Source of the DNA: a virus
Virus record (IMG/VR): IMGVR_UViG_3300033232_000039
Location: 10,277-74,276 of that record
Length of the DNA stretch: 64,000 nt
Direction: 5' to 3' (one strand)
Part shown: one piece after another, positions 1 to 21,159 of the stretch
How positions within the stretch are numbered: the first letter of the stretch is position 1
How the letters are laid out: each line of letters begins with the position of its first letter
Made by a program: the position numbers and the translations under genes
Notes under the pieces: generated by a model
What the model was told of the DNA's origin: nothing
Seen by the model: the letters and a program-made list of their open reading frames with translations, nothing else
The model's database searches: none

Positions 1-859
1 TCAGCCATACATCCATGATGGAGGCGAAGTCAGGGGTGATCTTGCTACGGTAGCCTAGGGAGCGAGTCTTGCAGTCCACTCCATAAGCAGCGGTATCCCA
101 GAAGAACTTATCCCCGTCGCGAACTGTGTAGATCACGTCGGAGAACAAGGTTGGGATTTCTGTCGCCAAGGCCTTGCCGATGGCTTTAATCATAACCTTG
201 GTGGACTGAGTAACCGGGTCTGTTTCCCTGTCCACGTGGGCAGTCATGACGAAGGGGCATTCTAGGCCCTGAGTGCAGAGGCGAAGGAAGTTCATCAGAT
301 TGGATTGAGCGATGCCGTAGTCACCTGGGGAGGCCATTGGGCGCGCGCCAATCTGCATCTTGAAGGCTGCGTTAGAAAGCTCGGTGAGGGAGTCAATCGC
401 AAAGATCCTGTTACGAGGAAAGGAGTCGACAGGGCCAAGTTCTTTTCCTGTTCGGTCATCTTTGAAGTTGGCGCAACTGTTCAAGATCTTCCAGAACGCA
501 TTATTATCTCCGCCTCGGTTGCTGTCCGTGGACTTGGCCAGGGCTTCGTAACTGAGCTTCCCTACGAGATCGGCGGCGTTGATTAGAGCTTTGAGGGAGA
601 TGGGTTTTGTTGCTTGCTGGTGCCAGTAAACGCAATCCGGGACTGGACGGTTGTGATCGCGATAGTAACCGAGCAGGGTTTCCAGCCCGTTCTCTGTGAA
701 CAGAACAGCGACTTCGAAGTTGTTCGCGGCCGCCCAGTCGCACAGGGTGCCGAGAGCGTAGGTTTTACCTGTGCCGCCAAGTCCCATAAGGCAGATCTTT
801 GGGCCAAAAAGTGACTGCTTGTCTTTCGTGACGAGCGTGTCAGGAGTAAGGGTTGTCAT
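1..859 (-). CDS. Sak4-like / AAA_24 P-loop ATPase, partial (3' end runs off the window; absent from the ORF track)
   Basis: Hand translation from ATG at 859: MTTLTPDTLVTKDKQSLFGPKICLMGLGGTGKT (Walker A)...IFAIDSLTELS (Walker B-like)...FVMTAHVDRE...LFSDVIYT; no stop before position 1; ATGA overlap with the stop of 856..1185. Confidence 0.8.
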   Translation of the reverse strand, partial: MTTLTPDTLVTKDKQSLFGPKICLMGLGGTGKTYALGTLCDWAAANNFEVAVLFTENGLETLLGYYRDHNRPVPDCVYWHQQATKPISLKALINAADLVGKLSYEALAKSTDSNRGGDNNAFWKILNSCANFKDDRTGKELGPVDSFPRNRIFAIDSLTELSNAAFKMQIGARPMASPGDYGIAQSNLMNFLRLCTQGLECPFVMTAHVDRETDPVTQSTKVMIKAIGKALATEIPTLFSDVIYTVRDGDKFFWDTAAYGVDCKTRSLGYRSKITPDFASIMDVWL

Positions 860-1185
860 AATAGTCTTTCGTAGTAAGCTAGATGTACGTCTAGTTCGTG
901 CTCAAGGACTTCTCGGGAGAGTTCGTTGAGGTTGTAGGTAAGCTCGTCTGCGAGCAGGGAGCCGGGGATTGACCAGAAGTCTGGGTGGTTTCGGCAGGCG
1001 ACTTCGATTGCGCGGAAGTAGAAGGGCTGGTCTTTCTTGTCAAGGACAATACGGCGCGCCCAGATTTCCCCGCAGTGCTTACAGAAGTAGGCCCGGGACA
1101 TCCAGCCCCAGGAGTCGGCGGCTTGGGTAGCGTAGCGGAACTCTCCGAGGTAACGGTCTTCGCAGATGATGTAGCCGTGCGGCAT
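856..1185 (-). CDS. Hypothetical phage protein with Cys pairs (possible Zn finger)
   Basis: 109 aa; CKHC and C-x2-H motifs; co-oriented and overlapping neighbours. Confidence 0.6.
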   Translation of the reverse strand: MPHGYIICEDRYLGEFRYATQAADSWGWMSRAYFCKHCGEIWARRIVLDKKDQPFYFRAIEVACRNHPDFWSIPGSLLADELTYNLNELSREVLEHELDVHLAYYERLL

Positions 1186-1231
1186 GGTAGCTCCTGTAGG
1201 TCAGGGACAAAGAACTTAGACGACCAGCGGT

Positions 1232-2149
1232 TCATTCGTCGTCCTCGATTAGCGTTTCTGTCCTTACTACCGGATCCCACTTGCGCCGCTGGAACTGTTG
1301 CCGCAGGAGGGGAGTTGGGTCGCGCATCTGGCAGCAGGAACGGAAGGGGCAGCCGCCGTACTCTGCGCAGGCGTGGTCAAGGTTGTAATCGAAGTAGCCA
1401 GACTCCCACGCTTGTATCATGCGCTTGGTGTCGAGGAGAAGTTGCTCGTACCACCGGTCTATGAGCCACTGGGGTCGATAGGTAATAGCCTCGAGGGTGT
1501 CGTACTTGGTTTTAAGGATAGACACTCCTCGGATAAGGAATCCATCAAGCTTAATGCCAGCTCTTCCGGCACCCCAGACATAACTAGTGAATTGGCTGCG
1601 TAAATCCCATTGGCGAGGCCAGCTTGCTCCAAGTTGGCTAGTAGTTTTGTCGTCTTCGCCGAGTGCCATCCCTTCATAGTTACACATCATGTCCATGCGA
1701 CCGCTGTAGAGGATAGGGTCACCTGTCTCTGGGTTTGCGATGTCGAGGGGCTCGAGGAAGTTGAACTCAATCCCTCGCTTGCCTCCGGGGAGGGTCATAG
1801 GGATGGCCTTGTCTTCCCCCAGGCGGTAGTGGGAGAAGTAGTACTCGAGAGCGCCTGCAGTACGCTCGGCAGACTTAGCGGACTCTGGAGGGCACTGGAA
1901 ATCTCCGTACTCTTTGAGTAAGACGCCAAGGCCCAGGGCTAAGGATTCATCAGGGGATTTTCCGTCGACGTAGTAAGCGATACGGGCGGCTTCGATGCCG
2001 GAGGCGTAACACTTTCCTGCATGAAGATGGATAGACTGCTCGCCGGGTTTCCAGTGCTGGAAGAACTCAAGGTTGGCTTTTTGGGGGCAGGACTTGAACG
2101 CGGCCATGAGGGAGGAGTCGAGGACGTGAGGGAATGGAGGGCGGGTCAT
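1232..2149 (-). CDS. PD-(D/E)XK Cas4-like exonuclease
   Basis: N-terminal FKSCP, GRMD...EDDKTT nuclease motifs, C-terminal CAEYGGCPFRSCC Fe-S-type cysteine cluster. Confidence 0.8.
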   Translation of the reverse strand: MTRPPFPHVLDSSLMAAFKSCPQKANLEFFQHWKPGEQSIHLHAGKCYASGIEAARIAYYVDGKSPDESLALGLGVLLKEYGDFQCPPESAKSAERTAGALEYYFSHYRLGEDKAIPMTLPGGKRGIEFNFLEPLDIANPETGDPILYSGRMDMMCNYEGMALGEDDKTTSQLGASWPRQWDLRSQFTSYVWGAGRAGIKLDGFLIRGVSILKTKYDTLEAITYRPQWLIDRWYEQLLLDTKRMIQAWESGYFDYNLDHACAEYGGCPFRSCCQMRDPTPLLRQQFQRRKWDPVVRTETLIEDDE

Positions 2150-2415
2150 GGCAGATCCTTTAAAATATGAGCTCTGGCGGCTTTGTTAAGAGTCGCGAGA
2201 GACTTGTGGATTACGAAGATGTTTCGTCGCTGGAAGTAGGATGTGCAGAAAACTTCGAGGATCTTCCGCTCGGGCGGAAGGGCGCCCGACAAACCGTCTT
2301 CGTCTCCACAAGCGTTGAAGATCCAGCAGTCGCCTTCTTCCCACAGGTCGCCCCAGAATTGATATGTAGGGGACAGGGACAGGCCGCAGCCTGTGATAAT
2401 GACCTTAGCCATCAC
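2146..2415 (-). CDS. Hypothetical protein
   Basis: 89-aa ORF with 4-bp overlaps on both sides. Confidence 0.55.
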   Translation of the reverse strand: MMAKVIITGCGLSLSPTYQFWGDLWEEGDCWIFNACGDEDGLSGALPPERKILEVFCTSYFQRRNIFVIHKSLATLNKAARAHILKDLP

Positions 2416-2702
2416 TCCTCCGAGTAGGTAAGCATCAGCAGATCATTCTTCCGCTGCGTTATGGCTCGGAGGTCTTCGTAAGCAGAGGCATTGATCTCTT
2501 CTTCACGTTCCTTGAGCTTCGCCAGAACGGGGGCAATACAGGCTTTTTTAAGCGGCATCGTGGCCTCGACTTCTACGAGCTTGATCGAGTTCTTCGGCGG
2601 CGAGTCAGTGTCCTCGCGGATAGTATAGTGCCAGCTGTACATGGTTTGGCCCAAGGCGTGAGCTTCAAGCCCCTCAGCATTGAGGTAGATACAAAGTTTC
2701 AT
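2412..2702 (-). CDS. Hypothetical protein
   Basis: 96-aa ORF, GGAGA-type RBS, overlaps the next gene. Confidence 0.6.
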   Translation of the reverse strand: MKLCIYLNAEGLEAHALGQTMYSWHYTIREDTDSPPKNSIKLVEVEATMPLKKACIAPVLAKLKEREEEINASAYEDLRAITQRKNDLLMLTYSEE

Positions 2703-2866
2703 TTCTCTTCTCCAGTTTACTCGACGGTGAACTGCACCGACAACAGGTATTAGGTAGGGGTGGCCAGTGCTGATCTCTGGCTTACCGTGGTCTTACTCTC
2801 ATAGCTACCGCGATAGTTAGCGTCTACAGTTCTTACGTATCAGCCTACGCACTCACCCCTGTACTC

Positions 2867-3100
2867 TTACAGACCCTCGAGTTCGCTTAACAAGTCATCC
2901 GAGTTAGCTATCACGGTTTTCTTAGCCCCGGCAGCCGAAGCGCGCTTGGTAGTACTAGCTGCAGCTGCTGCATTTCTCCTGCCGGCCCGAAGGTAGATGA
3001 TAGCTTCCTTCATCTCATCAAGGGTTAGCGTACCCTCAGTAGCGCGAAGTCTCCAGCCTGCGATTTTACTTTGTAGCTCGAGTGGGATAGGGGTGCTCAT
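2867..3100 (-). CDS. Hypothetical protein
   Basis: 77 aa; Ala/Lys-rich linker and acidic amphipathic C-terminus DDLLSELEGL. Confidence 0.6.
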   Translation of the reverse strand: MSTPIPLELQSKIAGWRLRATEGTLTLDEMKEAIIYLRAGRRNAAAAASTTKRASAAGAKKTVIANSDDLLSELEGL

Positions 3101-3213
3101 ATTAGCCTCATTGGTGTAGGGGTTGAAGGGAAGGCCTTGTGGAGGCGTTCAGCTATGTACAGGCCTGCTGCGAAGCAGAGGACTACGCAGGTGATAGCGA
3201 TCAGGACTCTCAT
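3097..3213 (-). CDS. Small membrane peptide (38 aa, not in the ORF track)
   Basis: MRVLIAITCVVLCFAAGLYIAERLHKAFPSTPTPMRLI; ATGA overlaps at both ends. Confidence 0.5.
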   Translation of the reverse strand: MRVLIAITCVVLCFAAGLYIAERLHKAFPSTPTPMRLI

Positions 3214-3506
3214 GATTGAAGTCGCAGGGTCAGAGCGCGAATAGCTTCAGGAGTGCCAGTAACTTGCAGCGTCCCTGGCTCTGAGCCGACGTAGGGGGCA
3301 AGGTCAAGAGCTTGCTCTGTGAAGTGAACTTGCAGCAGGTCTATCATGAAACGCGAGTAAGCGCCGTGAGGAACACGCCCCTCCAGGTCGGAGTACAGGG
3401 CGGAAGAGAGTTTAACCAGCAGCGGTAAAGGCAAAGCGACGTTAAGCGGCTTCGAAGGGATAAGATTAGGGGTTTTAGCCACGGTGAAATATCTCCTTAA
3501 GATCAC
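3210..3506 (-). CDS. Hypothetical protein, possibly ribbon-helix-helix DNA-binding
   Basis: KPLNVALPLPLLVKL...YSRFMIDLL pattern; true start may be a downstream GTG. Confidence 0.45.
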   Translation of the reverse strand: MILRRYFTVAKTPNLIPSKPLNVALPLPLLVKLSSALYSDLEGRVPHGAYSRFMIDLLQVHFTEQALDLAPYVGSEPGTLQVTGTPEAIRALTLRLQS

Positions 3507-3690
3507 TCGCCGCCGTGCCTGCGCTGCCTGCGAACAGGTACTGATACGCGGAGGCCTTGGCCATCTGTCGCTGCATCTTTGTCACGGTGTCTGGGCGGGT
3601 TGAGTATAATTCCGCTGCAACTTCGACGAAAGGGTCTTTCCCCTCCTTCACGGCCTCGCGGATAATAACTTCAGTTCTCGTCATTTTCAT
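3475..3690 (-). CDS. Stand-alone DNA polymerase A fingers/O-helix-like mini-protein (~70 aa)
   Basis: EGKDPFVEVAAELYSTRPDTVTKMQRQMAKASAYQYLF aligns without gaps to the Pol I segment [38 protein letters not shown]; GGAG RBS before ATG 3690. Confidence 0.6.
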   Translation of the reverse strand: MKMTRTEVIIREAVKEGKDPFVEVAAELYSTRPDTVTKMQRQMAKASAYQYLFAGSAGTAASDLKEIFHRG

Positions 3691-3874
3691 TCTCCCAGGG
3701 TGCGAGTGGGTCGGTGTCATCTTCATCTTCTAAGAGTACCTCGCAGCGGGTGCTGAGTAGATGCGCGGTGACGAGATTTGCAATGACTGCTTCGTCATCT
3801 CCTTCGATTTGAACGCGAGTCCAGAGTGCCGGAGGAAGCCAGAGGGCCTTTGGCCGGGTGAATAGTTCTATCAT
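3671..3874 (-). CDS. Hypothetical protein
   Basis: 67-aa ORF overlapping neighbours. Confidence 0.5.
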   Translation of the reverse strand: MIELFTRPKALWLPPALWTRVQIEGDDEAVIANLVTAHLLSTRCEVLLEDEDDTDPLAPWENENDEN

Positions 3875-4458
3875 GCTTGTCCTAGTTGGATGAGAATATC
3901 TTTGACCTGCACCGGAAGCATCCGCGAGAGGATGTCTGTGCCAGCCGGGAGGGTGAGGTACTGGCCGGGGGAGCGGAAGGTCGTGGTGACTACGAGTTCC
4001 ACGCGATCGAGGGTGCCTTCCCCGAAGCAGACGTCTAGCGGGACTTCAAGAGCTTCGAGGGAGAAGTCTAGGAGCTTGATACTCGCTACGCAAGGGAGGT
4101 CAGTTTTCCAAGGAAGCTTCTCTGACCGGACTGCAGGCGCCTCTGCTGGCCATCGGCCACTGAGGTATTCCACCTGACAGGGCTCAGCAGGGGCCTTGAG
4201 ATCAACCTCCCTGACAAGGCGGCGAGCATCTGGGACTGTCTTATGTTTCCACTCGACGAAGTAGCCAAGGAATGCTTGGGTTTCTTCGTGAAGGAGGGCG
4301 ATAACAGCGCCGCGTATCCAGTTCGCAGGGTTCGCGTAAAGACCCTCGGGAGAGGTGTCTTTGATCTCAGGGGGAGCCTTAGCCAGCTGAACCTTCTGAC
4401 CGCGCATTGCCGCCTTGGCCTCGCGGAAGAGGTCGTCGAGGGAGAGTTCTTGATTCAT
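3871..4458 (-). CDS. Hypothetical phage protein
   Basis: Track ORF 3871..4554; likely start MNQELSLDD at 4458 with GAGG RBS. Confidence 0.6.
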   Translation of the reverse strand: MNQELSLDDLFREAKAAMRGQKVQLAKAPPEIKDTSPEGLYANPANWIRGAVIALLHEETQAFLGYFVEWKHKTVPDARRLVREVDLKAPAEPCQVEYLSGRWPAEAPAVRSEKLPWKTDLPCVASIKLLDFSLEALEVPLDVCFGEGTLDRVELVVTTTFRSPGQYLTLPAGTDILSRMLPVQVKDILIQLGQA

Positions 4459-4566
4459 AATTGAGCCTCGCGGGAAGTTGTTGATGCTTGCGTGAATTAT
4501 CCCGTAATAATCCGCGCATATGTATTTGACACATCCTCGCGCAAATAGTTCCACAGGAATGTAAAT

Positions 4567-4965
4567 TTATTTTCTAGCTGGAGGTAGCGCGTCCACCGGT
4601 TCGTATGCTGGCTGCACAGCTCCTTTTAATTCTTCACATAGTTGTTCATTTTCGGCAATCAGTGCTTCAAGCTGTTCTGCAGCCGCGGCTATAGCCCTAC
4701 GGTCGCCATAATCGCGTAGCGCAGCCTCCGAATAACAGCGCACAGTGACTACTGGATTGCTGTCAATCATCAGGGCCTCCATAGCAGGCAAGGGTACGGT
4801 GCTAGTGTGAAACGCGGCACGCAGTCTATCTATTTCCCGCCGCAGTCGCGCGATCTTTCTGTGTAATATGTACTCGCGTTCTGAGCCCATGCTGTTCAGC
4901 CGCCGCTCTTCGTCAAGCTCGCGCTGTAATTGCGTCTCTTTTTCAGTTACTTGCAGGATGCTCAT
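4567..4965 (-). CDS. Hypothetical coiled-coil protein
   Basis: 132 aa; last gene of the AT-rich block before the composition shift. Confidence 0.55.
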   Translation of the reverse strand: MSILQVTEKETQLQRELDEERRLNSMGSEREYILHRKIARLRREIDRLRAAFHTSTVPLPAMEALMIDSNPVVTVRCYSEAALRDYGDRRAIAAAAEQLEALIAENEQLCEELKGAVQPAYEPVDALPPARK

Positions 4966-5174
4966 TTTGGTTCCTTTTGCTTACTGGCTTTTACAATGTG
5001 GTTACGACAGGCATCAACCTGCTGGCGAAGCCAAACAATATGACGACTATCTTCTGGCCTGAGGCTTACAAACCTACCCTCAGTCTCCATTTCGCCTATA
5101 GTTTTTGCGAAATAAACAGCTTTATCAAACATCTCTACTATGCAGTTATTCACCATGAATCCTGTCATCAGCAA
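4962..5174 (-). CDS. Hypothetical protein
   Basis: 70-aa ORF overlapping the next gene. Confidence 0.5.
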   Translation of the reverse strand: MLMTGFMVNNCIVEMFDKAVYFAKTIGEMETEGRFVSLRPEDSRHIVWLRQQVDACRNHIVKASKQKEPK

Positions 5175-5209
5175 TTGCCATAAGGATTTCTTTGTATTCC
5201 TGTTTCATA

Positions 5210-5533
5210 TTATTTTTCTTGCTGTTTAATAAAGTAATGTTTTGACAACATTCCTGAGCGAGGGCAGCGTACTACATTATGAGACACGTACCCATAACAC
5301 TCTAGTAACTTTAAATATTGATAAGCAGAAGGTGTATTAGCTAATACACGCATATTCATGGCAGAGACAGGAGAGGTTGTTTTTAGTACAGCCATGATTC
5401 GCTGTGCAATTACACTATTTTTAATATCAGTAAAGATGCCCTTGCGGGGTTTAGCTTTGCGCTTTGTTACCAAGTCTGCTTTACTATCTTTAGTACTTGG
5501 CTGATAAGAGGATTGCCAATGTGTTTGGATCAT
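5210..5533 (-). CDS. Hypothetical protein, possible winged-helix DNA-binding
   Basis: Basic N-terminus; helix pattern with YLKLLECYGYV and a wing-like C-terminus. Confidence 0.5.
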   Translation of the reverse strand: MIQTHWQSSYQPSTKDSKADLVTKRKAKPRKGIFTDIKNSVIAQRIMAVLKTTSPVSAMNMRVLANTPSAYQYLKLLECYGYVSHNVVRCPRSGMLSKHYFIKQQEK

Positions 5534-5877
5534 TGTTTACTCTCAAGCATAAGATTAAGCCTAGCTAATGCATTCCAGGCAGCTTGTGCTGCATGCATGG
5601 TGCCAGAATCAGGATCAATTTCTTCACCTGCTGCTTCTTTCATCAGATGTCGGTACATAGCATCTGTATAGCGGTTTACGCCATTAGGTACAGATTTCCA
5701 GCCATCTGGTGTGTATTTATTGGCACCAAAGGTACCTACCTTGCCTACTTCCTGTAGTGCAAGAGAGAACCCATTAAAGATCAAACCAAGACGGTTCTTA
5801 CCGTGATCTAACTTGGATCCGGGTTCATTAGCAGACTTGCCATTGGGATCAATTTCAATATTGGTTCTTGCATTCAT
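5530..5877 (-). CDS. dATP/dGTP diphosphohydrolase-like protein (DUF5664 family)
   Basis: GSKLDHGKNRLGL...VGTFGANKY..DGW...RYTDAMYRHL...GEEIDPDSG.MHAAQAAWN signature. Confidence 0.8.
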   Translation of the reverse strand: MNARTNIEIDPNGKSANEPGSKLDHGKNRLGLIFNGFSLALQEVGKVGTFGANKYTPDGWKSVPNGVNRYTDAMYRHLMKEAAGEEIDPDSGTMHAAQAAWNALARLNLMLESKQ

Positions 5878-5926
5878 TAATAAATCCTATTGTTAATCTA
5901 ACTTTAGTAGCTTTTATGGCAAGTGC

Positions 5927-6103
5927 TTAATCAAAGTAATTACCAGCAGGTGCTGGAGATACCACAGGCTCTTCCTGATTACGTTGATTGCGCCAAGCAG
6001 TACGAATAGCACGCTCCATACGATTCATCATGTACTTGCCTGCTTTTGTAGCCTTGCCCCGTTTGCAATGAGGACAGCTACATGATTTAGGTGTTTGTTT
6101 CAT
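5927..6103 (-). CDS. Small hypothetical protein with CxCxxC (58 aa, not in track)
   Basis: MKQTPKSCSCPHCKRGKATKAGK...; fits operon spacing. Confidence 0.5.
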   Translation of the reverse strand: MKQTPKSCSCPHCKRGKATKAGKYMMNRMERAIRTAWRNQRNQEEPVVSPAPAGNYFD

Positions 6104-6216
6104 TTCATATGTCCTTCCTCTTTGTCACAGAAACTACAACGGCGTTTCCAAAACCAAACGTATATAGCTTTGCACTCACAGCAGCGCATCTTAAACAGTG
6201 ATTTGAAGCCTTTCAT
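6100..6216 (-). CDS. Small Cys-rich peptide (38 aa, not in track)
   Basis: MKGFKSLFKMRCCECKAIYVWFWKRRCSFCDK...; 4-bp overlaps at both ends. Confidence 0.4.
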   Translation of the reverse strand: MKGFKSLFKMRCCECKAIYVWFWKRRCSFCDKEEGHMK

Positions 6217-6440
6217 GCTTGTTCCAATATTTCTGTTTCGATACGTTGAATATCATCATGTGTCATTTTTCTTTCCAACCAAGGGGCAGGACGCCACCTA
6301 AGATCACACACAATGAAATCAATATCTGGATACTCTGCTGGATAACAGTGATCAGGGGTTGTATCTGTTTTAGCCGGAGAATATTTACCAACAATTGTGT
6401 AGTCAATAAGACAAGGAATGCCATCTATATACGTTTTCAT
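6213..6440 (-). CDS. Hypothetical phage protein
   Basis: 75-aa ORF with AAGGA RBS. Confidence 0.6.
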   Translation of the reverse strand: MKTYIDGIPCLIDYTIVGKYSPAKTDTTPDHCYPAEYPDIDFIVCDLRWRPAPWLERKMTHDDIQRIETEILEQA

Positions 6441-6443
6441 GTT

Positions 6444-6647
6444 TTATCCTTTCAATGCCCAATACGGGCGACGAACCCCTGTGTGATCTAGACTGGGATG
6501 TTGTAGCGCATCTTCAGCCCCAGGTCGTAAAGGCTGAGGTGGGTTGTGTTTACTTGGTTTGTAATGTTCAGCAGGATAGCCAAGATTATTAACACCCACA
6601 CCTTTATGATGTGCATTTCGTTTGATACCATCAAAAGTTGTACTCAT
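6444..6647 (-). CDS. Hypothetical protein
   Basis: 67-aa ORF overlapping the upstream stop. Confidence 0.55.
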   Translation of the reverse strand: MSTTFDGIKRNAHHKGVGVNNLGYPAEHYKPSKHNPPQPLRPGAEDALQHPSLDHTGVRRPYWALKG

Positions 6648-6823
6648 GCTGCTGCGCTCACTGTTTCTTTCAGTTTGTCAAAATTAGTAAGTACAAACAA
6701 ATAATCCGGTTCGCTCAAGCCAGTAGCTCGACGCGCATTGGGATCAAACATGTTGTATTTACCTGTTACTTTGATTTTTTCATAAGCATGGAATGCTTTG
6801 ATGTCTTTTTCTGTAAATTTCAT
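6644..6823 (-). CDS. Hypothetical protein (DUF5049-like)
   Basis: YEKIKVTGKYNMFDP motif; start at 6823 overlaps the DNA polymerase stop. Confidence 0.5.
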   Translation of the reverse strand: MKFTEKDIKAFHAYEKIKVTGKYNMFDPNARRATGLSEPDYLFVLTNFDKLKETVSAAA

Positions 6824-9435
6824 TTGAGTTCTTTCAAGTGATTTTCTTTGGCGGTAGCGCATATATTGATGATTTCCTCTTTGGTTGCTGTTGTTGGTAA
6901 GGTAACTGAGTGTGCCCAGTCAGGCCAAAAGATATCCAATTGCGCACCTAACTTAACCCGGGGATGTTGAATCTCAGGGAGTTCCTGCCATGCCATTGCT
7001 TCGGTGATACCTTGGTTTGCAAAGTGCATTACATCAGCATCATCACGAATGAGGTAATAACCTGCATCATGAATCTGACCTACTGGAAGAATGTCTAAAC
7101 GATACTTGGATGCTCTTACTTTTTCCATAAAAGTATTCATGGCCCGATTGTTCAATAATCCATAGGATTGGCCTAGGGCGTTACCTGCGGTACGCCCTTC
7201 GGCTTTGGCTTCATAAGGAACGCTGTCGGTGCCAAATACCACTTGCTTAAGTAACGGTGTGCGTACACGTAAGCCAAAGGCAACTTCGACAAAACCATCT
7301 TTGGATGCTTGTTGTAGTCTATTTTGTACATATTGATCTGATTCCTCATAAAGTGCGTGATATCCCTTTTCAATGGCCTGAGCTTTATCTTTATCAAAAC
7401 CAAGGTTATTTACTAACGTATGCCACGTACCTTGGTAAGTAAGTGCAAATGTTGGCCCTTTGGATTCTTGACGAAGATCAGGATATAGTTTCTTTATGGA
7501 ATTGATGGATTCCACTGTATCAATGATGTCAGGACATTGATCACTAAAGTAACTAAAGGCTCGCAGACAGTGACCGCAATAACCATCTGTATAGACTTTG
7601 ATTTTGTTCCTGTCTTTGGTTGTCAAGGCAGAGATCATGTCTTCCAATGAATTGAAGTCAGCACCAACAAATAACCAGCCATCCGGGGCACTAAAGCAAC
7701 TTTTAACTAGCTTGCTAAAGGTGGACTTGGAGGGTAGGTTCTGCATGTTGGGTTCTGAACTACTCAAACGACCCGAGACTGTTCCACCTAAGTTAAAGCT
7801 ACCATGCAGATACTTGCGGCCATCTGCCTTGTCAAGCCCATGTTCAAAAGCAGGAATAAAAGTAGAAAGAATCTTGCTAACCTTGCCATAACTAATCAAC
7901 GCAGTCAGTAGCTCTTTGTAAGCAGGCTCCTTGGTATGATTGATAAGCTTCTCAATGGTTTCAGCACCTGTGGCTGGCTGTTTTGTATCGGTGTAATCCA
8001 GTACAGGTAAGCCCATTTGTTCATACAACAGGCGCTGTAATTGCGGCCCGCTGTTAGGGTTAAACGTCACATTACTGAATTTATCCAGTGGATGTTGTTT
8101 TACCTTTAACTTGGCATTGGCTGCTTCCATTGCACTGGTTTGTACCAACAGATTGAGCACCTTAATCAATGGACTATTCTTGATCAGTGCCAAGTGGATT
8201 TCCTGTTGGAGTTCCAGGTTCTTCTTGACTTCTTTGATCTTGGTTTTATCCATTGGCATCCCTGTCAACTCCATCTGAATGATGGTCTTGAGACTTGGTA
8301 GCATTAGTGTTCGGTACAGCTCTTCCTGCTTGTCCTGAACCATGATAGGGGTGTACTTGTTCTTGACAAACCAAGTACTCAGACAGTCCACCAAGTTGTA
8401 CTGAAGCAAGTCTTTCAAGCTAATCCTGCGAATGTCCTTGATGTCTTCTTGTGCCCAGTTGCCAGCAAACTCATGTGCAAGCGCCTTCAAACCAAGCACA
8501 TTACCCGCTGTGCTGTTGGTAGCAAGGTAAGCAATGATCTTGGTATCTTGAAATGCTCTGGTCATTATCTCTAAACCAGTGATGCAACTCATTGAATCTA
8601 AAAGGGATTCCATCCACAGGGTGTAGATAATAACTTTAATGTCATAAGTTGCGTTGTGGAAAGTAAGTTCACCTTGGTATTCCGTGAAGAAGTTGAGCAG
8701 CAGTGCCCGTACTTGTGAATTGACTACCTGACAGCCAAAGCCCTGATGCATCCCTGGATCTTTGGAAATGTAATCGCAGGCAAATGCCAAGCCATTATGT
8801 TGATCCCAGGCAAAGCCAATAGTGGCTATCCCAGCTTCATTAAAACGCAGGCTGAAGCCCTCAATATCACAGGTGAGTTCTTTGTACTGGTGCAAGGATT
8901 CAAGGGCAGCAGCGATGTCCTGAAGGCTTTCTGGATACTGTGCTGTATGGATGATTCCGGTACCAAGTGCAAGATAGTTGCCATTAAACTGATCGGCAAC
9001 TGTCTTTAGGCTCATGGTCAATTTATCCTGTAGAGCTGGGTTATAGATCAATGCTTGATAATTAACCCCCAATACCACATTCATATGTTCATAGCCCTTG
9101 ATGGCACAGGGTAATACATATCCATGATGTGGCTCTGCCTTGCTCTGTTTGGTCAGTGTCTTGAAATAGGCAGCATCTGTGACATAAAGCAATGTGATCC
9201 CTAGAGAATTCATTGCTGGAAGTAATTTGTCAAGATACTCTTTAATGAATTTGACAGAAGCTTTACCGTTATCACCATATCTCAGTGTAAAAGCAATGAG
9301 TGAGGCATTACTGATACCTAGTGTATTTAATGGACTCACATAATTAGCTTGAATGTCTTGCTTGTTGAAAGATGTGGCTTTCAGTAGCACAGCGATACGG
9401 TAGTTTTCAGACTGTGTGAATACAATGTGCTTCAT
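6820..9435 (-). CDS. N4 gp39-like family A DNA polymerase with 3'-5' exonuclease
   Basis: Exo motifs CDIEG, FHNATYD, YNLVDC; SGRLSSSEPNMQNLP; motif A GADFNSLE; motif B RQESKGPTFALTY; motif C IHDA; 871 aa. Confidence 0.95.
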   Translation of the reverse strand: MKHIVFTQSENYRIAVLLKATSFNKQDIQANYVSPLNTLGISNASLIAFTLRYGDNGKASVKFIKEYLDKLLPAMNSLGITLLYVTDAAYFKTLTKQSKAEPHHGYVLPCAIKGYEHMNVVLGVNYQALIYNPALQDKLTMSLKTVADQFNGNYLALGTGIIHTAQYPESLQDIAAALESLHQYKELTCDIEGFSLRFNEAGIATIGFAWDQHNGLAFACDYISKDPGMHQGFGCQVVNSQVRALLLNFFTEYQGELTFHNATYDIKVIIYTLWMESLLDSMSCITGLEIMTRAFQDTKIIAYLATNSTAGNVLGLKALAHEFAGNWAQEDIKDIRRISLKDLLQYNLVDCLSTWFVKNKYTPIMVQDKQEELYRTLMLPSLKTIIQMELTGMPMDKTKIKEVKKNLELQQEIHLALIKNSPLIKVLNLLVQTSAMEAANAKLKVKQHPLDKFSNVTFNPNSGPQLQRLLYEQMGLPVLDYTDTKQPATGAETIEKLINHTKEPAYKELLTALISYGKVSKILSTFIPAFEHGLDKADGRKYLHGSFNLGGTVSGRLSSSEPNMQNLPSKSTFSKLVKSCFSAPDGWLFVGADFNSLEDMISALTTKDRNKIKVYTDGYCGHCLRAFSYFSDQCPDIIDTVESINSIKKLYPDLRQESKGPTFALTYQGTWHTLVNNLGFDKDKAQAIEKGYHALYEESDQYVQNRLQQASKDGFVEVAFGLRVRTPLLKQVVFGTDSVPYEAKAEGRTAGNALGQSYGLLNNRAMNTFMEKVRASKYRLDILPVGQIHDAGYYLIRDDADVMHFANQGITEAMAWQELPEIQHPRVKLGAQLDIFWPDWAHSVTLPTTATKEEIINICATAKENHLKELK

Positions 9436-9442
9436 AATACTT

Positions 9443-9961
9443 TCAGATAAGTAAGTTTTTTACCATCCTCGCTTTCATGAGGTTAATAGGTAACTGATTT
9501 TTGGTTAGCATACTCAATATGTCTTCCTGAGTTAGTTTATGTGTCTTGCAAGGACATGAAGCAATTAGCTTCTCAATAGGTTGATGTACTGAAGGTGGCA
9601 GCACCATTAAGTAATCTGACAGGTCATTAGATGAATTCAATACTTGTCCAATAAATCCGAGTACATATGGTAACTCGTAATTATTAAGATTGATGATCTC
9701 TTTTAGATAATCATCCATGTAAACATGAAGACTTTTGTGAAGTCTGTTTACTCTGCGATGTATTACAGCACTGGGTGTACTATAAATCTCTGACTTGTAT
9801 ATGAATGCCATATCCGCATTACCGCAAAGAATAGAATTCTTTGTAATAAGTTTCTCCAGCTTGCGCTCAAAGTCTTTTAGTACTGGGTTGTACAAAAACG
9901 AATAAAGAGCATCCTTAATTTGCTGTTTAGTTCGTGGGTCATGAAGAAGATGGTCATTCAT
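9443..9961 (-). CDS. N4 gp38-like conserved protein
   Basis: 172 aa between helicase and DNA polymerase, as in N4 gene order (inference). Confidence 0.6.
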   Translation of the reverse strand: MNDHLLHDPRTKQQIKDALYSFLYNPVLKDFERKLEKLITKNSILCGNADMAFIYKSEIYSTPSAVIHRRVNRLHKSLHVYMDDYLKEIINLNNYELPYVLGFIGQVLNSSNDLSDYLMVLPPSVHQPIEKLIASCPCKTHKLTQEDILSMLTKNQLPINLMKARMVKNLLI

Positions 9962-9982
9962 ACTGTATTTCTTTTACATTGA

Positions 9983-11224
9983 CTAAGCAATGTCTCCTGT
10001 TAAATATACTTGATGTCTTGCGCGACTTACCCCTACATATAACATTCGTGCAATTTGATCACCTGAATTACATCGTTTAATGTCATCTAGATCAATAAAT
10101 ACACGGTCAAATGTACTTCCTTGCGCTTTATTAACAGTACAAGCATAAGCTGCACGTAAATCAACCCAACGGCTATCAATCTCTTCGACTACACTGAATT
10201 GTTCCAAAGCTTTAGCTTTTTTAAGTGCTGTAGTCTTATCAATAATAGATTTGGGGCCAAAAAGAGAAAGATAGTTATCTAACGTATAGTAGTTACCTAA
10301 AACACTATGCTGATGTATATCAGGGCCAATGTTGGTAATACGAACCAACTGATCTGTCTTGATAGACACTTTTCCTGCGTTGATGTATTTGTTACATACT
10401 GCGTAGTCATTTACCTGAAAGTTAGGACTGCCTGTGACATGACCATTCACAGCATGGTTATAGTTCACACTACATTTGTTAGTCCATGACAGGATTTTCG
10501 AATCCTGATAGCACCAATCAGTTCGAGTGAATTCTTGTTCAATGGCTTTATCAAAGTCAGTACGGGGAAGATACTGAATAACATAGCCGTCTGGTTTAAA
10601 ACTAAAGAATTCACCTGTATTGACTGTATTCCTGAACTTGGTAGATAAATCTACGATGGGATTACCCGCAGCTTGGCGTACTACCTGACTCAGATGTGCC
10701 CCTTTGTAGTGGGCAGAGAATACGGGTGTACCTGTTGCCTTAACAGGGGTCAATTGTGCAGGATCACCAATGAAAACAATTTTGCAATTGCAAGTAAGTT
10801 TGAAAATCAGATTCAATAGCTGTTTATCAATATAGCTGGCTTCGTCAATAAATAACAAATAGCCTTCTTTGGCTATGGTACTACGTGGAATAAGGGTGGT
10901 AACCCCTGTCTCATAGTTGGTCTGAACACGCAAGCCAAGAAAGGAATGAATGGTATTGGTCGTCATTCCTGTCAGTTGACTAAGATTCTCTGCAGCCTTA
11001 TTGGTAGTGGCTGTAAGCACAATTTCATACTCTTTGATTTTTGGGTCAATAAGTCGTGCAGCCTTAATGAAGTTAGGCGTATGCTCAATCAGACTCTTAG
11101 CTAAAGTGGACTTACCCGTACCTGAATAACCAGAGAGTAAAAAGACTTGTTCAATAGGGTCTGTAATGAAACGGCGAAACACTTCAAGTGCATTTTGTTG
11201 GTCTGGGGTAAGGGTAATGTTCAT
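9983..11224 (-). CDS. SF1 (Dda/RecD-like) DNA helicase, N4 gp37-like
   Basis: GYSGTGKS, ATTNKAA, FIDEASYI, GDPAQL, VVRQ, TVNKAQGSTF, YVGVSRAR motifs. Confidence 0.93.
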   Translation of the reverse strand: MNITLTPDQQNALEVFRRFITDPIEQVFLLSGYSGTGKSTLAKSLIEHTPNFIKAARLIDPKIKEYEIVLTATTNKAAENLSQLTGMTTNTIHSFLGLRVQTNYETGVTTLIPRSTIAKEGYLLFIDEASYIDKQLLNLIFKLTCNCKIVFIGDPAQLTPVKATGTPVFSAHYKGAHLSQVVRQAAGNPIVDLSTKFRNTVNTGEFFSFKPDGYVIQYLPRTDFDKAIEQEFTRTDWCYQDSKILSWTNKCSVNYNHAVNGHVTGSPNFQVNDYAVCNKYINAGKVSIKTDQLVRITNIGPDIHQHSVLGNYYTLDNYLSLFGPKSIIDKTTALKKAKALEQFSVVEEIDSRWVDLRAAYACTVNKAQGSTFDRVFIDLDDIKRCNSGDQIARMLYVGVSRARHQVYLTGDIA

Positions 11225-13104: not shown

Positions 13105-13180
13105 TGGTTCTCAGGACGGGACTTGAACCCACAACCAAAGAATTATGAGTTCTCTGCTCTACCAATTGAGCTACCTGAGA
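13105..13180 (-). tRNA. tRNA with CAT anticodon (elongator Met or lysidine-Ile2), 76 nt, encoded CCA
   Basis: Reverse strand TCTCAGG TA GCTC AATTGGTA GAGC A GAGAA CTCATAA TTCTT TGGTT GTGGG TTCAAGT CCCGT CCTGAGA A CCA folds as a full cloverleaf. Confidence 0.92.
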
Positions 13181-15636: not shown

Positions 15637-16662
15637 CTAGATAGCTTGATTGAATACAGCAGTATTAAGCTGGTTTGTAAACCAAGACCGTGCCACTGTT
15701 GCAAGCGGCTTGCTTAACTGTTTATAGTCAATACCACTAGTTTGTAGGATGTCTGACTCTTCTTTGAGTACATCATGATATATCCAACGAATGAAGTCAC
15801 CCATACTTGTCATGTCAAATGGTTTCAGTTGTTCATTAATCAGGTTATGAAGCCCCTGTTCCAATCGCGCTTCCGTAACTGTCATTGCTACGAAGTCATT
15901 GATTTGATTTACTGTTGCAACATCTATAGATGCCAGAGTCTTCACTTTGGATACAGAATGTTTTTCACCTTTGACTTTGAACCAGTATTCAGAAGAAGGA
16001 TCACTTGTACAGCGCCACACAATGCCTTCACCAATACCCGTTACACCAAACGTTTTACCCACAGGACAGCAAGCTTCTACTTCATTAGTAAGCTCTTTAA
16101 GCTGGTTTTGTGAAAGCTCAGGATGTTTAAAATCAATCTCAATATCCCAAGTCTGAAACTGCTGAATATTGGTGATCTTAGCAAAGGTATCAACGGTATA
16201 GGGTGGAATGTCCACCCATTGGTTATTGACCAGGATTGCAAAGATAACAAACATCTTGGGTAGGCCATTAATAGCTACACCTTTTTGAATAGCGCCACCA
16301 CACCATTCACCATAGACAACAATAGTGTGATTCACACCTTTTAGTGCATTGGTTTTGGCAATGTATGCGCCTAAACCAGCAACAGTATCAAGATGCTGCT
16401 CCATGTGTGCCATAAAGCCTGCATTGTCTTGTGTTTGTGTCAATACACGCCCACGAGACTGATAGTAAATACCCTCTGGGCCATAAACAATAGCTGCATT
16501 GGTTCCATGCAACTTGCATGTCCCATTGAATGTAAGCTTAGGATATACAGGATTAGGGTTATAAATTGCCTTACCTTGTTCATCCAGCCCAATAAAAGAA
16601 GCTTTTGTACGGATATGTTTGACAATATCTCGAAATTGTTTAATAGATGGGAATGGGATCAT
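15637..16662 (-). CDS. RNA ligase, T4 Rnl2 family
   Basis: Motif I KLHGTN, YYQSR, motif III VYGEWCG, motif IV GEGIV, motif V FKVKG; 341 aa. Confidence 0.85.
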   Translation of the reverse strand: MIPFPSIKQFRDIVKHIRTKASFIGLDEQGKAIYNPNPVYPKLTFNGTCKLHGTNAAIVYGPEGIYYQSRGRVLTQTQDNAGFMAHMEQHLDTVAGLGAYIAKTNALKGVNHTIVVYGEWCGGAIQKGVAINGLPKMFVIFAILVNNQWVDIPPYTVDTFAKITNIQQFQTWDIEIDFKHPELSQNQLKELTNEVEACCPVGKTFGVTGIGEGIVWRCTSDPSSEYWFKVKGEKHSVSKVKTLASIDVATVNQINDFVAMTVTEARLEQGLHNLINEQLKPFDMTSMGDFIRWIYHDVLKEESDILQTSGIDYKQLSKPLATVARSWFTNQLNTAVFNQAI

Positions 16663-16680: not shown

Positions 16681-16713
16681 TAAAAAAAAATGAACATACC
16701 CGTTAAGGTATGT
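16681..16713 (-). terminator. Intrinsic terminator closing the RNAP1-RNAP2-alphaCTD unit
   Basis: ACATACC-cgttaa-GGTATGT stem, followed on the minus strand by a long T-run. Confidence 0.7.
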
Positions 16714-16769
16714 CCACTCTTCAATCACAAAGCGCAGGGACTGCGCATGTTCTACTGTTTATCCACTAT

Positions 16770-17165
16770 TCACTTTGAATTCTCTGATAAGTGCCAACCA
16801 TTACCATGCAATATTTCTTTGATTTCATTCAAAGCTTTACGACCAAGGTTAGGGAATCTACGTAGGTTATTTTCACTGTATTGCAGTAATTCAGCGACAG
16901 TAGTAATATTCGCTGCTTTAAGGCAATCAATACTACGTTTTGATAACGAAAGGCTATTTATACCTCGATTCAAAACCTGTTTATTCCTAAAGTCTTCCCA
17001 TAGCTGCACAACTTCAATAACTCTTTGCGTGTCAGGCAGGTTGTTTTCTCTAATGAAAGAGTTGATACAACTTAGTCTGGTTAGATTGGCTTCATGTTTT
17101 TCTGCTTCCAAGGAAGAAGTAAACAACTTACCATCTGTGGTTTGGTATGCCATGATTGTTTCCAT
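16770..17165 (-). CDS. Protein with a C-terminal RNA polymerase alpha-CTD-like domain
   Basis: LSLSKRSIDCLKAANITTVAELLQYSENNLRRFPNLGRKALNEIKEIL matches RpoA CTD [48 protein letters not shown] without gaps; AGGAG RBS before ATG 17165. Confidence 0.85.
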   Translation of the reverse strand: METIMAYQTTDGKLFTSSLEAEKHEANLTRLSCINSFIRENNLPDTQRVIEVVQLWEDFRNKQVLNRGINSLSLSKRSIDCLKAANITTVAELLQYSENNLRRFPNLGRKALNEIKEILHGNGWHLSENSK

Positions 17166-17185
17166 ATTTATATCTCCTAAGTTAA

Positions 17186-18424
17186 TTAACACAAACCATA
17201 GTTACTATTCCTGATCAGACATGATAGGTTATTAGATAACTTTTGATATACCACGGGATATCCTAACAACTGACTCATAATGTCAGTAAGAATATTACTA
17301 TCAGCCAGTTCAGCCAGTACATTAATGTATTGTTGGCGTAGATAGTTCATATTATTGGCATGACAAGTAAACTCATCATGGATGGCGACAACCTCAAATG
17401 GGCTATAACTTAGCATACTTTCTACTATCTCAGACAATGCTTGTAGATGTTTTGTAGATAAGTAACCAATGTTTGTTATATCAAGGTATGGAAGTATGAC
17501 TACATCAGCCATATTACTGCGGGTATATTGTTCACAATAATACGGAATCATAGTATCTTTACTGTCACATAACCCGGAATATCCTAGGAGACGCTGTAGT
17601 AGTTCAATCTCGATAAGATTAGCTACATCCATGATCATTGTCAGATCATAGTTACATCTCCGGTGAATACATCTCAGTATGTATGCATCAATACTATGAA
17701 CTACATTTGCAACATTACTCACACCTTTCTGAGTACCAGTATTTTCATAGAACTCATAAGTAAATGTTGCATGATCAAGTTCATCTACTTCAATACGTGC
17801 TTCCTGTTTAGCCATTACTTTGATCTTTACATCAAAACCATCGGGTAGTTTCCATTCATGGGTTAATGCATATGGTTTCCAGGTACCTAGTAAATCTTGC
17901 AGTAACTCCCAAGCACCTGGTGCTGTTTGTTTACATGCTTCATAAAAGGCTGCCAATTCTGGCGTATCTTCACCAAACAGTTCTTTTGGTACTGCTTTGG
18001 AACCATACATGGAAGTCATCAAGGCACGCTTGGCATCAGCACGGGATATGTTGACCTTGCCACCCAGGATAGTTCCCATAGCTGCAGTGACTTCTGTATA
18101 GGCATCTGATCGCTTGTTAGGATTTACTAATCCGGTAGCAGTAGCACCAGCAACACAACCCGTAACCACGGACATGATCTGTACACCAGAGCACACAGCA
18201 TCAAAGCCTACCCTATGGCCTGTAGGAAGCCCTGCTTGGGCCTTTCTCAGGGCCATTACAGCCTTTTGATACAAGGGTGGCTTCTCTGCCTTGAAAGCCA
18301 AGGATTCAAGTTCTGAGAGGTTTTCAGTAGTCCACTGAATGCGTTCTTCAAACAGCAGCTTATCCAGTCCATACTGGTTAGCAATGTCAATGAGTAAATA
18401 CTCATAACCGGAAAAGCTTTTCAT
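17186..18424 (-). CDS. RNA polymerase II subunit 2 (N4 gp16-like; catalytic half of a split T7-like RNAP)
   Basis: Motif A GFDAVCSGVQ, motif B RADAKRALMTSMYGS, motif C AIHDEF. Confidence 0.93.
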   Translation of the reverse strand: MKSFSGYEYLLIDIANQYGLDKLLFEERIQWTTENLSELESLAFKAEKPPLYQKAVMALRKAQAGLPTGHRVGFDAVCSGVQIMSVVTGCVAGATATGLVNPNKRSDAYTEVTAAMGTILGGKVNISRADAKRALMTSMYGSKAVPKELFGEDTPELAAFYEACKQTAPGAWELLQDLLGTWKPYALTHEWKLPDGFDVKIKVMAKQEARIEVDELDHATFTYEFYENTGTQKGVSNVANVVHSIDAYILRCIHRRCNYDLTMIMDVANLIEIELLQRLLGYSGLCDSKDTMIPYYCEQYTRSNMADVVILPYLDITNIGYLSTKHLQALSEIVESMLSYSPFEVVAIHDEFTCHANNMNYLRQQYINVLAELADSNILTDIMSQLLGYPVVYQKLSNNLSCLIRNSNYGLC

Positions 18425-18437
18425 ATATATCCTTTAG

Positions 18438-19346
18438 TTAAGTTGGAACACCTGTAACAATAGCTTCTTTGGCAAGCTCGATACTTGCTTTCTTGAATGA
18501 GGTACCTTGCGTATTGACGTGATACCCTTGTGCATACATGCGACCACGTTTATCTACCTTATTGGTAAGATAGAACTCATTACCTTGACTATTCATGAGT
18601 GAATAGAAAGAGTAACTTTGCTTCTTGAAGCGTATCCAGTTATCTACTTTCTCTGGACTATCCAGATCAAAAGTAGGATCCTCTTCAACCTTTGATAGAA
18701 ACTGGGTATCCAGACGTAAAGCAATACTATTAATAATATTAAGTACGTCCAGACAGATATCACCATCATGATGATTACCTCTACCCAGAATAAGACTATC
18801 ATTGTGCGATAGATAACCACTTGAGTAGTTATTAAGTAACTCCAATGGCACACATACCATTGGTGGCAAGTAACTACAGTTCTCTACGAACTTAAGTAAT
18901 TCCTTACTCAGTGGAATACGTGATACCAACATAAGACTGGCTTGTTTGTTTGCTTTACTGATGTCATAAGCATCAGTACCACATAGAACAGCAATAATCT
19001 CAGCTACTATCTTGATTGCATCTGTTTTCTCACATAGATTCAATCTACTTGCCATTTGAGCAGTAACCGAAGTAAATAACTCAGGTCGTTGATAGTAAGC
19101 AATACCAATAAATAGATCATTAATGATCTTGGTAAGATCATGATTCTTTAATTGGTCAATGCGTGAATTCTTTGATTCATAGTATGTTTTGGACATATAC
19201 TCATCAAGCAATTGCACGCCAAGTAGTATCTTTTCTTGCATTACAGGACTATCCTCAATTTCCTGTGCAATATACTTATCAATATACTTGCGGTTATACC
19301 TCTTTTCATTTTCCTCTTGCATAACTATTTGCTTGATGTTATCCAT
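18438..19346 (-). CDS. RNA polymerase II subunit 1 (N4 gp15-like)
   Basis: DKRGRMYAQGYHVNTQG (T7 DWRGRVY equivalent); adjacent to subunit 2; likely start MDNIK at 19346. Confidence 0.9.
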   Translation of the reverse strand: MDNIKQIVMQEENEKRYNRKYIDKYIAQEIEDSPVMQEKILLGVQLLDEYMSKTYYESKNSRIDQLKNHDLTKIINDLFIGIAYYQRPELFTSVTAQMASRLNLCEKTDAIKIVAEIIAVLCGTDAYDISKANKQASLMLVSRIPLSKELLKFVENCSYLPPMVCVPLELLNNYSSGYLSHNDSLILGRGNHHDGDICLDVLNIINSIALRLDTQFLSKVEEDPTFDLDSPEKVDNWIRFKKQSYSFYSLMNSQGNEFYLTNKVDKRGRMYAQGYHVNTQGTSFKKASIELAKEAIVTGVPT

Positions 19347-19399
19347 GCTAGTCTCCAAAAAAGTTAAGTTATAGCAGTGTAGAATCCACTACTTTGTTT

Positions 19400-20852: not shown

Positions 20853-21122
20853 TTAAAGTGCGAAACCTGAACCAGTGGTAGCAATGGCCGACTGATATTC
20901 GATTTCAAGCTTTGCCAAGATGATTGAGACACGTGAAGGATCACTGTTCAACCAGGCAAGCATTTCTTTTTCGCTGGAACGGCTTTCTTTCAAGGGGATA
21001 GCACCCAATTTCTTACGCTTGCCACCATCAGCAGCAGGCAGGTAGAAATTCAGGAAGCCCTGAGCTTTCCAGGATTCGTTAGAGGAAGCTTGAACAGAAG
21101 AAGTGTTTGAAGTGAAGGCCAT
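20853..21122 (-). CDS. Early protein, possible N4 gp2/Drc-like ssDNA-binding RNAP II cofactor
   Basis: MAFT...WKAQGFLNFY...GAIPL resembles N4 gp2 (KAQFWLNIGY...TGIPL, recalled); AAGGAG RBS before ATG 21122; early position. Confidence 0.45.
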   Translation of the reverse strand: MAFTSNTSSVQASSNESWKAQGFLNFYLPAADGGKRKKLGAIPLKESRSSEKEMLAWLNSDPSRVSIILAKLEIEYQSAIATTGSGFAL

Positions 21123-21159
21123 GATAGGCTCCTTAGTTAAGTACATAGGCAGGATTTGC

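Follow-up and report, generated by a model that had tools for sequence, protein, structure and literature searches.

A two-domain protein with an RNA polymerase α C-terminal domain encoded behind the RNAP II genes of an uncultured N4-like phage

Why would an N4-like phage, in a setting that involves three polymerases, carry a free copy of the bacterial RNA polymerase α subunit's C-terminal domain (α-CTD)? It is this domain that mediates the action of UP elements and of most class I activators, and phages are known to act on host RNA polymerase subunits by modification, cleavage or binding. The question is raised by a short gene in the window analysed here, a 64,000-nucleotide stretch of DNA corresponding to positions 10,277–74,276 of the IMG/VR record IMGVR_UViG_3300033232_000039. 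The whole record is 75,482 bp long, is rated complete by CheckV in IMG/VR and encodes a virion RNA polymerase of 3,627 residues. A preliminary description of the sequence had read the gene product as an α-CTD mimic fused to an unrelated N-terminus, acting either as a decoy for host activators or NusA or as an adaptor for the phage RNAP II or single-stranded-DNA-binding protein (SSB). The identity of the domain stood up to closer analysis; the proposed functions fared less well.

Gene structure and genomic setting

The coding sequence of the 131-residue protein (P0001) occupies 16773–17165 on the minus strand, with the stop codon at 16770–16772. ATG 17165 is taken as the start because homologues begin with ME(S/T)(I/V)MAY at the equivalent position and because a Shine–Dalgarno sequence, AGGAG (17174–17178, minus strand), lies 8 nt 5′ of it; a longer reading from GTG 17192 was ruled out by the same comparison with homologues. 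A precomputed match to PF26169 is listed for the protein.

Only 20 bp separate the gene from the stop codon (17186) of the RNAP II large subunit, the spacing given previously. This subunit (N4 gp16-like; 17186–18424, minus strand) matches the Pfam family RNA_pol at 2.8e-15 and is 50% identical to the LUZ7/LIT1-type RNAP2 of Pseudomonas phages. The presumed small subunit (N4 gp15-like; 18438–19358, minus strand) has no Pfam match and was assigned from its position upstream of the large subunit, as in LUZ7. Farther upstream lies a Drc-like early ORF of 97 residues (20853–21146, minus strand), which matches phrog_6271 (2.5e-5) and, weakly, in BLASTP, LUZ7 gp14 (Drc; 23% identity over 61 residues, E 1e-5); phrog_6271 contains LUZ7 gp14 and is labelled 'toxin', as is LUZ7 gp14 in its RefSeq record. 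Drc is a single-stranded-DNA-binding cofactor of RNAP II (PMC7145618), and, judged by these matches, the 97-residue ORF is likely to encode the RNAP II cofactor of the window phage. Genes for a macrodomain protein and a SLOG protein are also found upstream in the same direction.

On its 3′ side the gene is followed by two terminator-like hairpins (16685–16746, minus strand), which close the operon: one spans 16746–16732 and the other has a 17-pair stem (16722–16685) that runs into T9. Their folding z-score of −4.2 bears out the terminator that had been placed at 16681–16713, and no terminator-like site was found on the minus strand between the α-CTD gene and 20.6 kb. Past the hairpins the replication block begins, with genes for an RNA ligase, an ATPase, a helicase and a DNA polymerase. 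The leftward block with the RNAP II genes thus ends with the α-CTD gene. This block is early in N4 and LUZ7 (PMC4496689, PMC9163698), and from its place in the block, ahead of the terminators, the α-CTD gene is probably early as well. It is a genuine gene of an uncultured N4-like phage.

Some further features of the surroundings may be recorded. The RNA ligase gene that follows (PF09414) lies at 15637–16662 on the minus strand, and the replication block contains a single tRNA-Met (CAT) gene (13105–13180, minus strand). A look-up of sequencing runs that contain the region returned none, from RNA or otherwise. The GC content is 51–58% over the initial ∼15.3 kb of the virus record and ∼40% over the remaining ∼60 kb; the shift takes place within ∼500 bp near window position 5000, the GC-rich part consisting of window positions 1–5000 together with L278 (record positions 1–10276). 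Either the genome is a recombinant mosaic or the assembly has joined two N4-like phages into a chimera. The α-CTD gene lies well inside the ∼40% GC part.

Domain architecture and conservation

Residues 63–131 (16773–16979, minus strand) constitute an RNA polymerase α-CTD equivalent to RpoA 251–319. The Pfam profile RNA_pol_A_CTD matches residues 61–120 over profile positions 7–66 of 67 (E 1e-20; 73.7 bits against a curated cut-off of 23.8 bits), and in a six-frame search of the whole genome with the same profile the gene scores 74.7 bits, so that the match is far beyond chance. The profiles RAD51D_N and HHH_5 also match, only weakly, at ∼1e-3 compared with 1e-20. BLASTP against Salmonella RpoA (329 residues, E. 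coli numbering) aligns residues 64–127 with 252–315 without gaps, with 27 of 64 positions identical; the alignment made by hand had given about 27 of 63 over 252–314. In a sequence search of the PDB, 46 distinct α-subunit sequences match the protein, the best being those of Caulobacter (54 bits) and Francisella α-1 (51 bits), with E. coli at 39–42 bits. An AlphaFold2 model of the protein has a pLDDT of 86.5. A Foldseek comparison of the modelled α-CTD with 8y5t_A2, 1z3e_B and 1lb2_E gave TM-scores of 0.93–0.95 (normalized by target) and r.m.s.d. values of 0.6–1.0 Å; the solved chains that were superposed include the E. coli and B. subtilis α-CTDs, for which the r.m.s.d. is 0.6–0.8 Å. The protein is not an RpoA, as it does not contain the N-terminal domain of ∼235 residues that serves dimerization and the assembly of β and β′, and no α-NTD match stands out for it in the PDB sequence search.

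The BLASTP alignment also settles which functional residues are retained, and here the preliminary reading was accurate throughout. R77, C81, N106, G108 and K110 correspond to RpoA R265, C269, N294, G296 and K298, so that the core of the 265 determinant (R265, N294, G296 and K298) is present. The DNA-contact positions N268 and S299 are changed, to D80 and A111, respectively. The 261 determinant contacts σ region 4 and the 287 determinant contacts CAP. The acidic patch of the former is neutralized, with N70, S71 and S73 at the positions of D258, D259 and E261, and the positions of the latter read S97, E98, N99 and N100. All of the acidic positions D258, D259, E261, E273 and E288 of RpoA are neutral in the phage protein, and residues 63–131 are net basic, with ten Lys or Arg and six Asp or Glu residues.

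A word-based search gave three full-length relatives with 36–51% identity. An exhaustive profile search returned 18,255 proteins with an α-CTD domain; among the best 150 of these, which were inspected, at least 18 representative clusters (at 50% identity; 127–164 residues) match the two-domain build over its full length. Ten residues are invariant in an alignment of 20 family members, namely D11, G12, F15, A21 and W56 in the N-terminal part and R77, L82, P105, N106 and G108 in the α-CTD. The DNA contacts form the best-kept surface: R265, N294 and G296 are present in all 20 members, C269 in 19 and K298 in 18, the other two having Arg. N268 is kept in 14 of the 20 and S299 in 13, and an acidic residue at 268 is peculiar to the window protein. 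The σ-contact positions 258, 259 and 261 and the CAP-contact positions 285–288 vary freely across the alignment. P293, N294 and G296 are also structural residues, so that their retention is by itself no proof of DNA binding; R265 is the informative position for DNA reading.

Among the profile matches there are also many long proteins with 3–13 tandem α-CTD-like stretches (for example, 12 stretches in 1031 residues), including P0005, P0006, P0009 and P0011. These tandem proteins score above every true RpoA against the family profile.

The tree of α-CTD segments (65 columns) is unresolved overall and supports no statement on a single capture or on a donor lineage, but the four proteins encoded next to RNAP II form a supported clade (96/98). 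The NLGRK.LNEIKE variant, formerly taken as pointing to a β- or α-proteobacterial host, is common to the whole phage family and, with the tree in this state, is of no use for host assignment. The slightly higher scores of the Caulobacter and Francisella α subunits identify no host either.

The N-terminal module (residues 1–62; 16980–17165, minus strand; AlphaFold2 pLDDT 86) is modelled as a β-hairpin with the motif A-Y-x-T-x-D-G-x-x-F followed by a long helix with E-A-x-x-H-E and a second helix that contains the invariant W56, the two helices forming a helical hairpin. As the preliminary description had it, this part is unrelated to RpoA, and residues 1–62 match no Pfam family. A fold search with the module alone against solved chains gave a best Z-score of 5.1 (helical hairpins, MarR and MOB-binding peptides), which is in the noise range for helical models, and the fold search of the AFDB clusters returned unnamed proteins only. 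A YebG look-alike found in the Atlas (TM-score 0.58) was not taken as kin. In BFVD the module matches a small uncharacterized phage protein (E 9e-4, 34% identity), and phrog_5109 matches it at E 0.0046.

A word-based search with residues 1–62 recovered the query alone. A pattern scan and a hidden Markov model of the N-modules showed that the module also exists as a stand-alone protein: the model matched 73 viral ORFs, mostly of 67–75 residues, at E-values of 1e-8 to 1e-19. The stand-alone family shares the motif A-(Y/F)-x-T-x-D-G-x-x-F ... P-Y ... W-E-x-W-K; examples among loci L175–L247 are L178 5001–5204 and L215 5001–5219. A tblastn search with a stand-alone N-module against cultured phages gave no match. 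In all seven of the stand-alone loci that were examined, the module gene lies directly 3′ of a gene for a protein of 220–257 residues; of the four such genes scanned, two encode a PD-(D/E)XK nuclease. These loci are replication modules, with DNA polymerase A and an SNF2 helicase in the neighbourhood, and not transcription modules. The occurrence of the module on its own in 73 viral contigs shows that the 131-residue protein joins a captured α-CTD to an independent phage module. Family members have insertions of 4–11 residues at the domain junction, which is for this reason considered to be linker-like.

Structure prediction suggests that the protein pairs through its N-module. The homodimer score of 0.44, with the best of three controls at 0.00, is barely above the mark of 0.42. 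In calibration, 20 of 30 proteins with a solved same-chain pair reached that mark, as did one of 23 solved as single chains; these counts are a rough guide here, as our own alignment was used. At least 75% of the contacts recur between runs, with a partner pLDDT of 82 or more. The predicted interface is formed by the helical hairpin (residues 33–63), including the invariant W56, and the conserved β-hairpin with its neighbouring residues (D11, G12, F15 and A21) lies outside it. The predicted assembly may be described as a 'mini-α dimer'.

Distribution among phages

In L001/L002 (large subunit 63% identical to that of the window phage) and in L010, an α-CTD gene of the same family follows the RNAP II large-subunit gene at a distance of 14–15 bp; it is these genes and that of the window that encode the four proteins of the supported clade. 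At the slot in L001 equivalent to that of the RNA ligase gene in the window (1781–2725) there is an ATP-dependent DNA ligase gene, preceded by an extra gene for a 137-residue protein. A survey of the same locus in other N4-like phages did not reveal a general association: 28 IMG/VR loci with a large subunit 57–69% identical have no α-CTD gene within 3 kb, ∼23 of them with at least 0.6 kb of downstream sequence, and LUZ7 has no such gene.

A different α-CTD protein, of 160 residues and with a different N-terminus before its C-terminal α-CTD, is encoded at L070 7713–8195 (plus strand), on the same contig as L254, by a gene that is convergent with the virion RNA polymerase gene. The contig is GC-rich and N4-like, with a virion polymerase 39% and an RNAP II large subunit 62% identical to those of the window phage. 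It may represent a second acquisition of an α-CTD in this phage group, at another locus, the domain tree being poorly resolved in this respect.

The P0004 branch of the family belongs to a non-N4 phage type. Its gene is the last of a block of small genes and lies 0.08–0.5 kb upstream of the genes for the terminase small subunit, the terminase large subunit and the portal protein. In one non-N4 contig (L005) the small-gene block with the P0004-type gene also encodes a protein with an H-NS domain (PF00816; 668–970).

A search of 50,697 cultured-phage records by tblastn with two α-CTD proteins found no recognisable cultured phage gene; the annotated matches are bacterial rpoA genes and the rest are unannotated and mostly fragmentary records. 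In IMG/VR two short patterns identified 209 stretches that encode an α-CTD; nearly all of the ORFs at the 80 loci that were kept are 83–273 residues long and join the domain to varied partners. A metagenome scan with the α-CTD pattern alone returned almost only bacterial rpoA genes and no further N4-linked copies. No study of a phage-encoded α-CTD was found in the papers searched, nor was a description of this protein found for cultured Schitoviridae, in line with the earlier remark that no N4-family system of this kind had been described. What is new in the 131-residue protein is the partner module, the predicted dimerization and the N4-like setting with its three polymerases.

Three observations, the ∼23 related loci that do not carry the gene, the occurrence of the family in non-N4 phages and the presence of a Drc-like cofactor gene in the window, identify the α-CTD gene as an optional accessory gene and make an obligate role in RNAP II transcription, or a place in the phage's own polymerase, unlikely.

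Possible function and relation to known systems

We propose, with a probability that we put at roughly 40%, that the product is a dimeric AT-rich-DNA-binding modulator of host RNA polymerase promoters that competes with the polymerase's own α-CTDs. The N-module would pair two chains and thereby display two captured α-CTDs on short linkers, an arrangement resembling that of the two α-CTDs of the α dimer but detached from the polymerase. Such a dimer would bind AT-rich UP-element-type DNA beside σ70-type promoters, its presumptive targets; DNA binding is inferred from the retention of the minor-groove contact residues and from the net basic charge of the domain. It would act in trans on the host RNA polymerase, most probably by occupying sites that the α-CTDs of the enzyme need, and strong UP-dependent host promoters might be damped early in infection, this being the presumed direction of the effect. 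Competition at host promoters is favoured here since the DNA-reading surface is conserved, the domain is basic and pairing is modelled. Since N4-like phages use the host σ70 RNA polymerase for their late genes (PMC9163698, PMC4496689), a factor aimed at this enzyme makes sense.

Several observations count against promoter competition. Asp at position 268 and Ala at position 299 replace residues that both contact DNA in E. coli, so that the affinity for DNA may be low or altered; the homodimer score is just over the mark; and the stand-alone N-module occurs in replication and not in transcription modules. A scan of the 64-kb window with the UP-element consensus gave no target site (0 matches, with 0.95 expected).

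The decoy function put forward in the preliminary description would have a free α-CTD soak up CRP-type or MarA/SoxS-type activators or NusA, with the result that activator-dependent host genes are turned off. MarA/SoxS-type factors also use the 265 surface of the α-CTD, which is conserved here on an intact fold, and an early accessory gene is typical of host takeover. A decoy of this sort thus keeps some plausibility, yet we regard it as rather unlikely, as the DNA contacts are conserved while the CAP (287) and σ (261) patches vary within the family and have in part disappeared from the window protein, and as a decoy would have no need of a second conserved module or of dimerization.

The conserved β-hairpin of the N-module could instead hold the host RNA polymerase while the α-CTD anchors the protein on phage DNA, making it a positive factor for weak late promoters. 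Such a role would suit the P0004 branch, the position of which just upstream of the terminase and portal genes is the usual one for late activators, as well as the placement of the most conserved residues of the N-module (D11, G12, F15 and A21) outside the predicted dimer interface; moreover, the late promoters of N4-like phages are weak σ70-like sites that need help (PMC9163698). It is nevertheless quite unlikely, given that the window gene lies in the early block and not beside late genes, that N4-type phages already use SSB as a late activator (PMC4496689), that no repeated site was found in the window and that stand-alone copies of the N-module lie in replication modules.

Replication modules would be the natural home of the protein if the α-CTD had been exapted outside transcription, as a generic helix–hairpin–helix DNA clamp on a replication or recombination accessory protein. 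In many viral contigs the stand-alone N-module comes directly after a PD-(D/E)XK nuclease gene, with DNA polymerase A and an SNF2 helicase close by; the window gene adjoins the replication block (ligase, ATPase, helicase and polymerase); weak matches to RAD51D_N and HHH_5 exist; and α-CTD arrays are found in many non-polymerase proteins. We consider a clamp improbable, however: the true α-CTD match is much stronger than those to other helix–hairpin–helix families (1e-20 versus 1e-3), the UP-element-reading residues R265, C269 and K298 are kept and the gene is on the transcription side of the terminators. An adaptor or subunit that tethers the two-subunit RNAP II, or Drc or SSB, to DNA or host factors, as suggested previously, is very improbable: although three independent contigs (the window, L001/L002 and L010) have the gene 14–20 bp behind the large subunit and the corresponding proteins form one clade, the gene is missing within 3 kb from all of the ∼23 N4-like loci with a related large subunit and from LUZ7, stands beside the virion polymerase gene instead in the L070/L254 relative, occurs as a family in phages that show no trace of RNAP II, in some of them beside terminase genes, and coexists in the window with a gene for a Drc-like cofactor.

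Competition at host promoters may also have a wider bearing. It is possible, if slightly less probable than the proposal for the window protein, that phages have repeatedly captured the host α-CTD on small pairing modules and that the resulting free 'mini-α dimers' compete for UP-type DNA or for α-CTD-directed regulators. If this is true, they would constitute an undescribed class of host-takeover factor that works by mimicry of a polymerase subunit domain, present here as an optional early gene. A free paired α-CTD would let a phage shift the relative use of promoters in trans by simple means, and for N4-like phages it would add an optional layer to the three-polymerase scheme. Such a class of regulators may have been missed, as uncultured phages commonly carry α-CTD genes (209 stretches in IMG/VR) whereas none was found in ∼50,000 cultured-phage records at the sensitivity used.

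Of the known systems, the α-CTD of bacterial RpoA (RpoA 249–329; PF03118) is the closest in fold (TM-scores of 0.93–0.95), sequence (42–46% identity), size and position, being C-terminal after a linker; examples of its structures are the E. coli α-CTD–CAP–DNA complexes (1LB2 and 3N4M) and the Caulobacter α-CTD on AT-rich DNA (9ZUM). Unlike RpoA, the 131-residue protein has no α-NTD and cannot assemble into RNA polymerase; its acidic σ patch is neutralized, it carries the N268D and S299A changes and a phage module is predicted to supply the dimerization that the α-NTD provides in the polymerase. The α-CTD ORFs of IMG/VR likewise carry a portable α-CTD outside RpoA, and it is the partner with the A-Y-x-T-x-D-G-x-x-F motif that sets the present protein apart from them.

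Phage T4 Alt and ModA ADP-ribosylate R265 of α. Rac of phiKMV brings about the cleavage of host α (PMC7552054). Like these factors, the 131-residue protein is proposed to be aimed at α-CTD-dependent promoter use, early in infection and in phages that also carry a polymerase of their own. Alt, ModA and Rac alter or cut the host subunit enzymatically, whereas the present protein copies a domain of it and has no enzyme domain. N4 gp2 and LUZ7 Drc offer another parallel, as they too are small early proteins from the block that holds RNAP II, and Drc is dimeric and binds DNA (PMC7145618, PMC4496689). They have no sequence or fold likeness to the 131-residue protein, however, and they bind single-stranded DNA and are conserved together with RNAP II. 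The α-CTD gene, absent from ∼23 related loci and from LUZ7, is not co-inherited with RNAP II in this way; it is sporadic, and it is built from a domain that reads the minor groove of double-stranded DNA.
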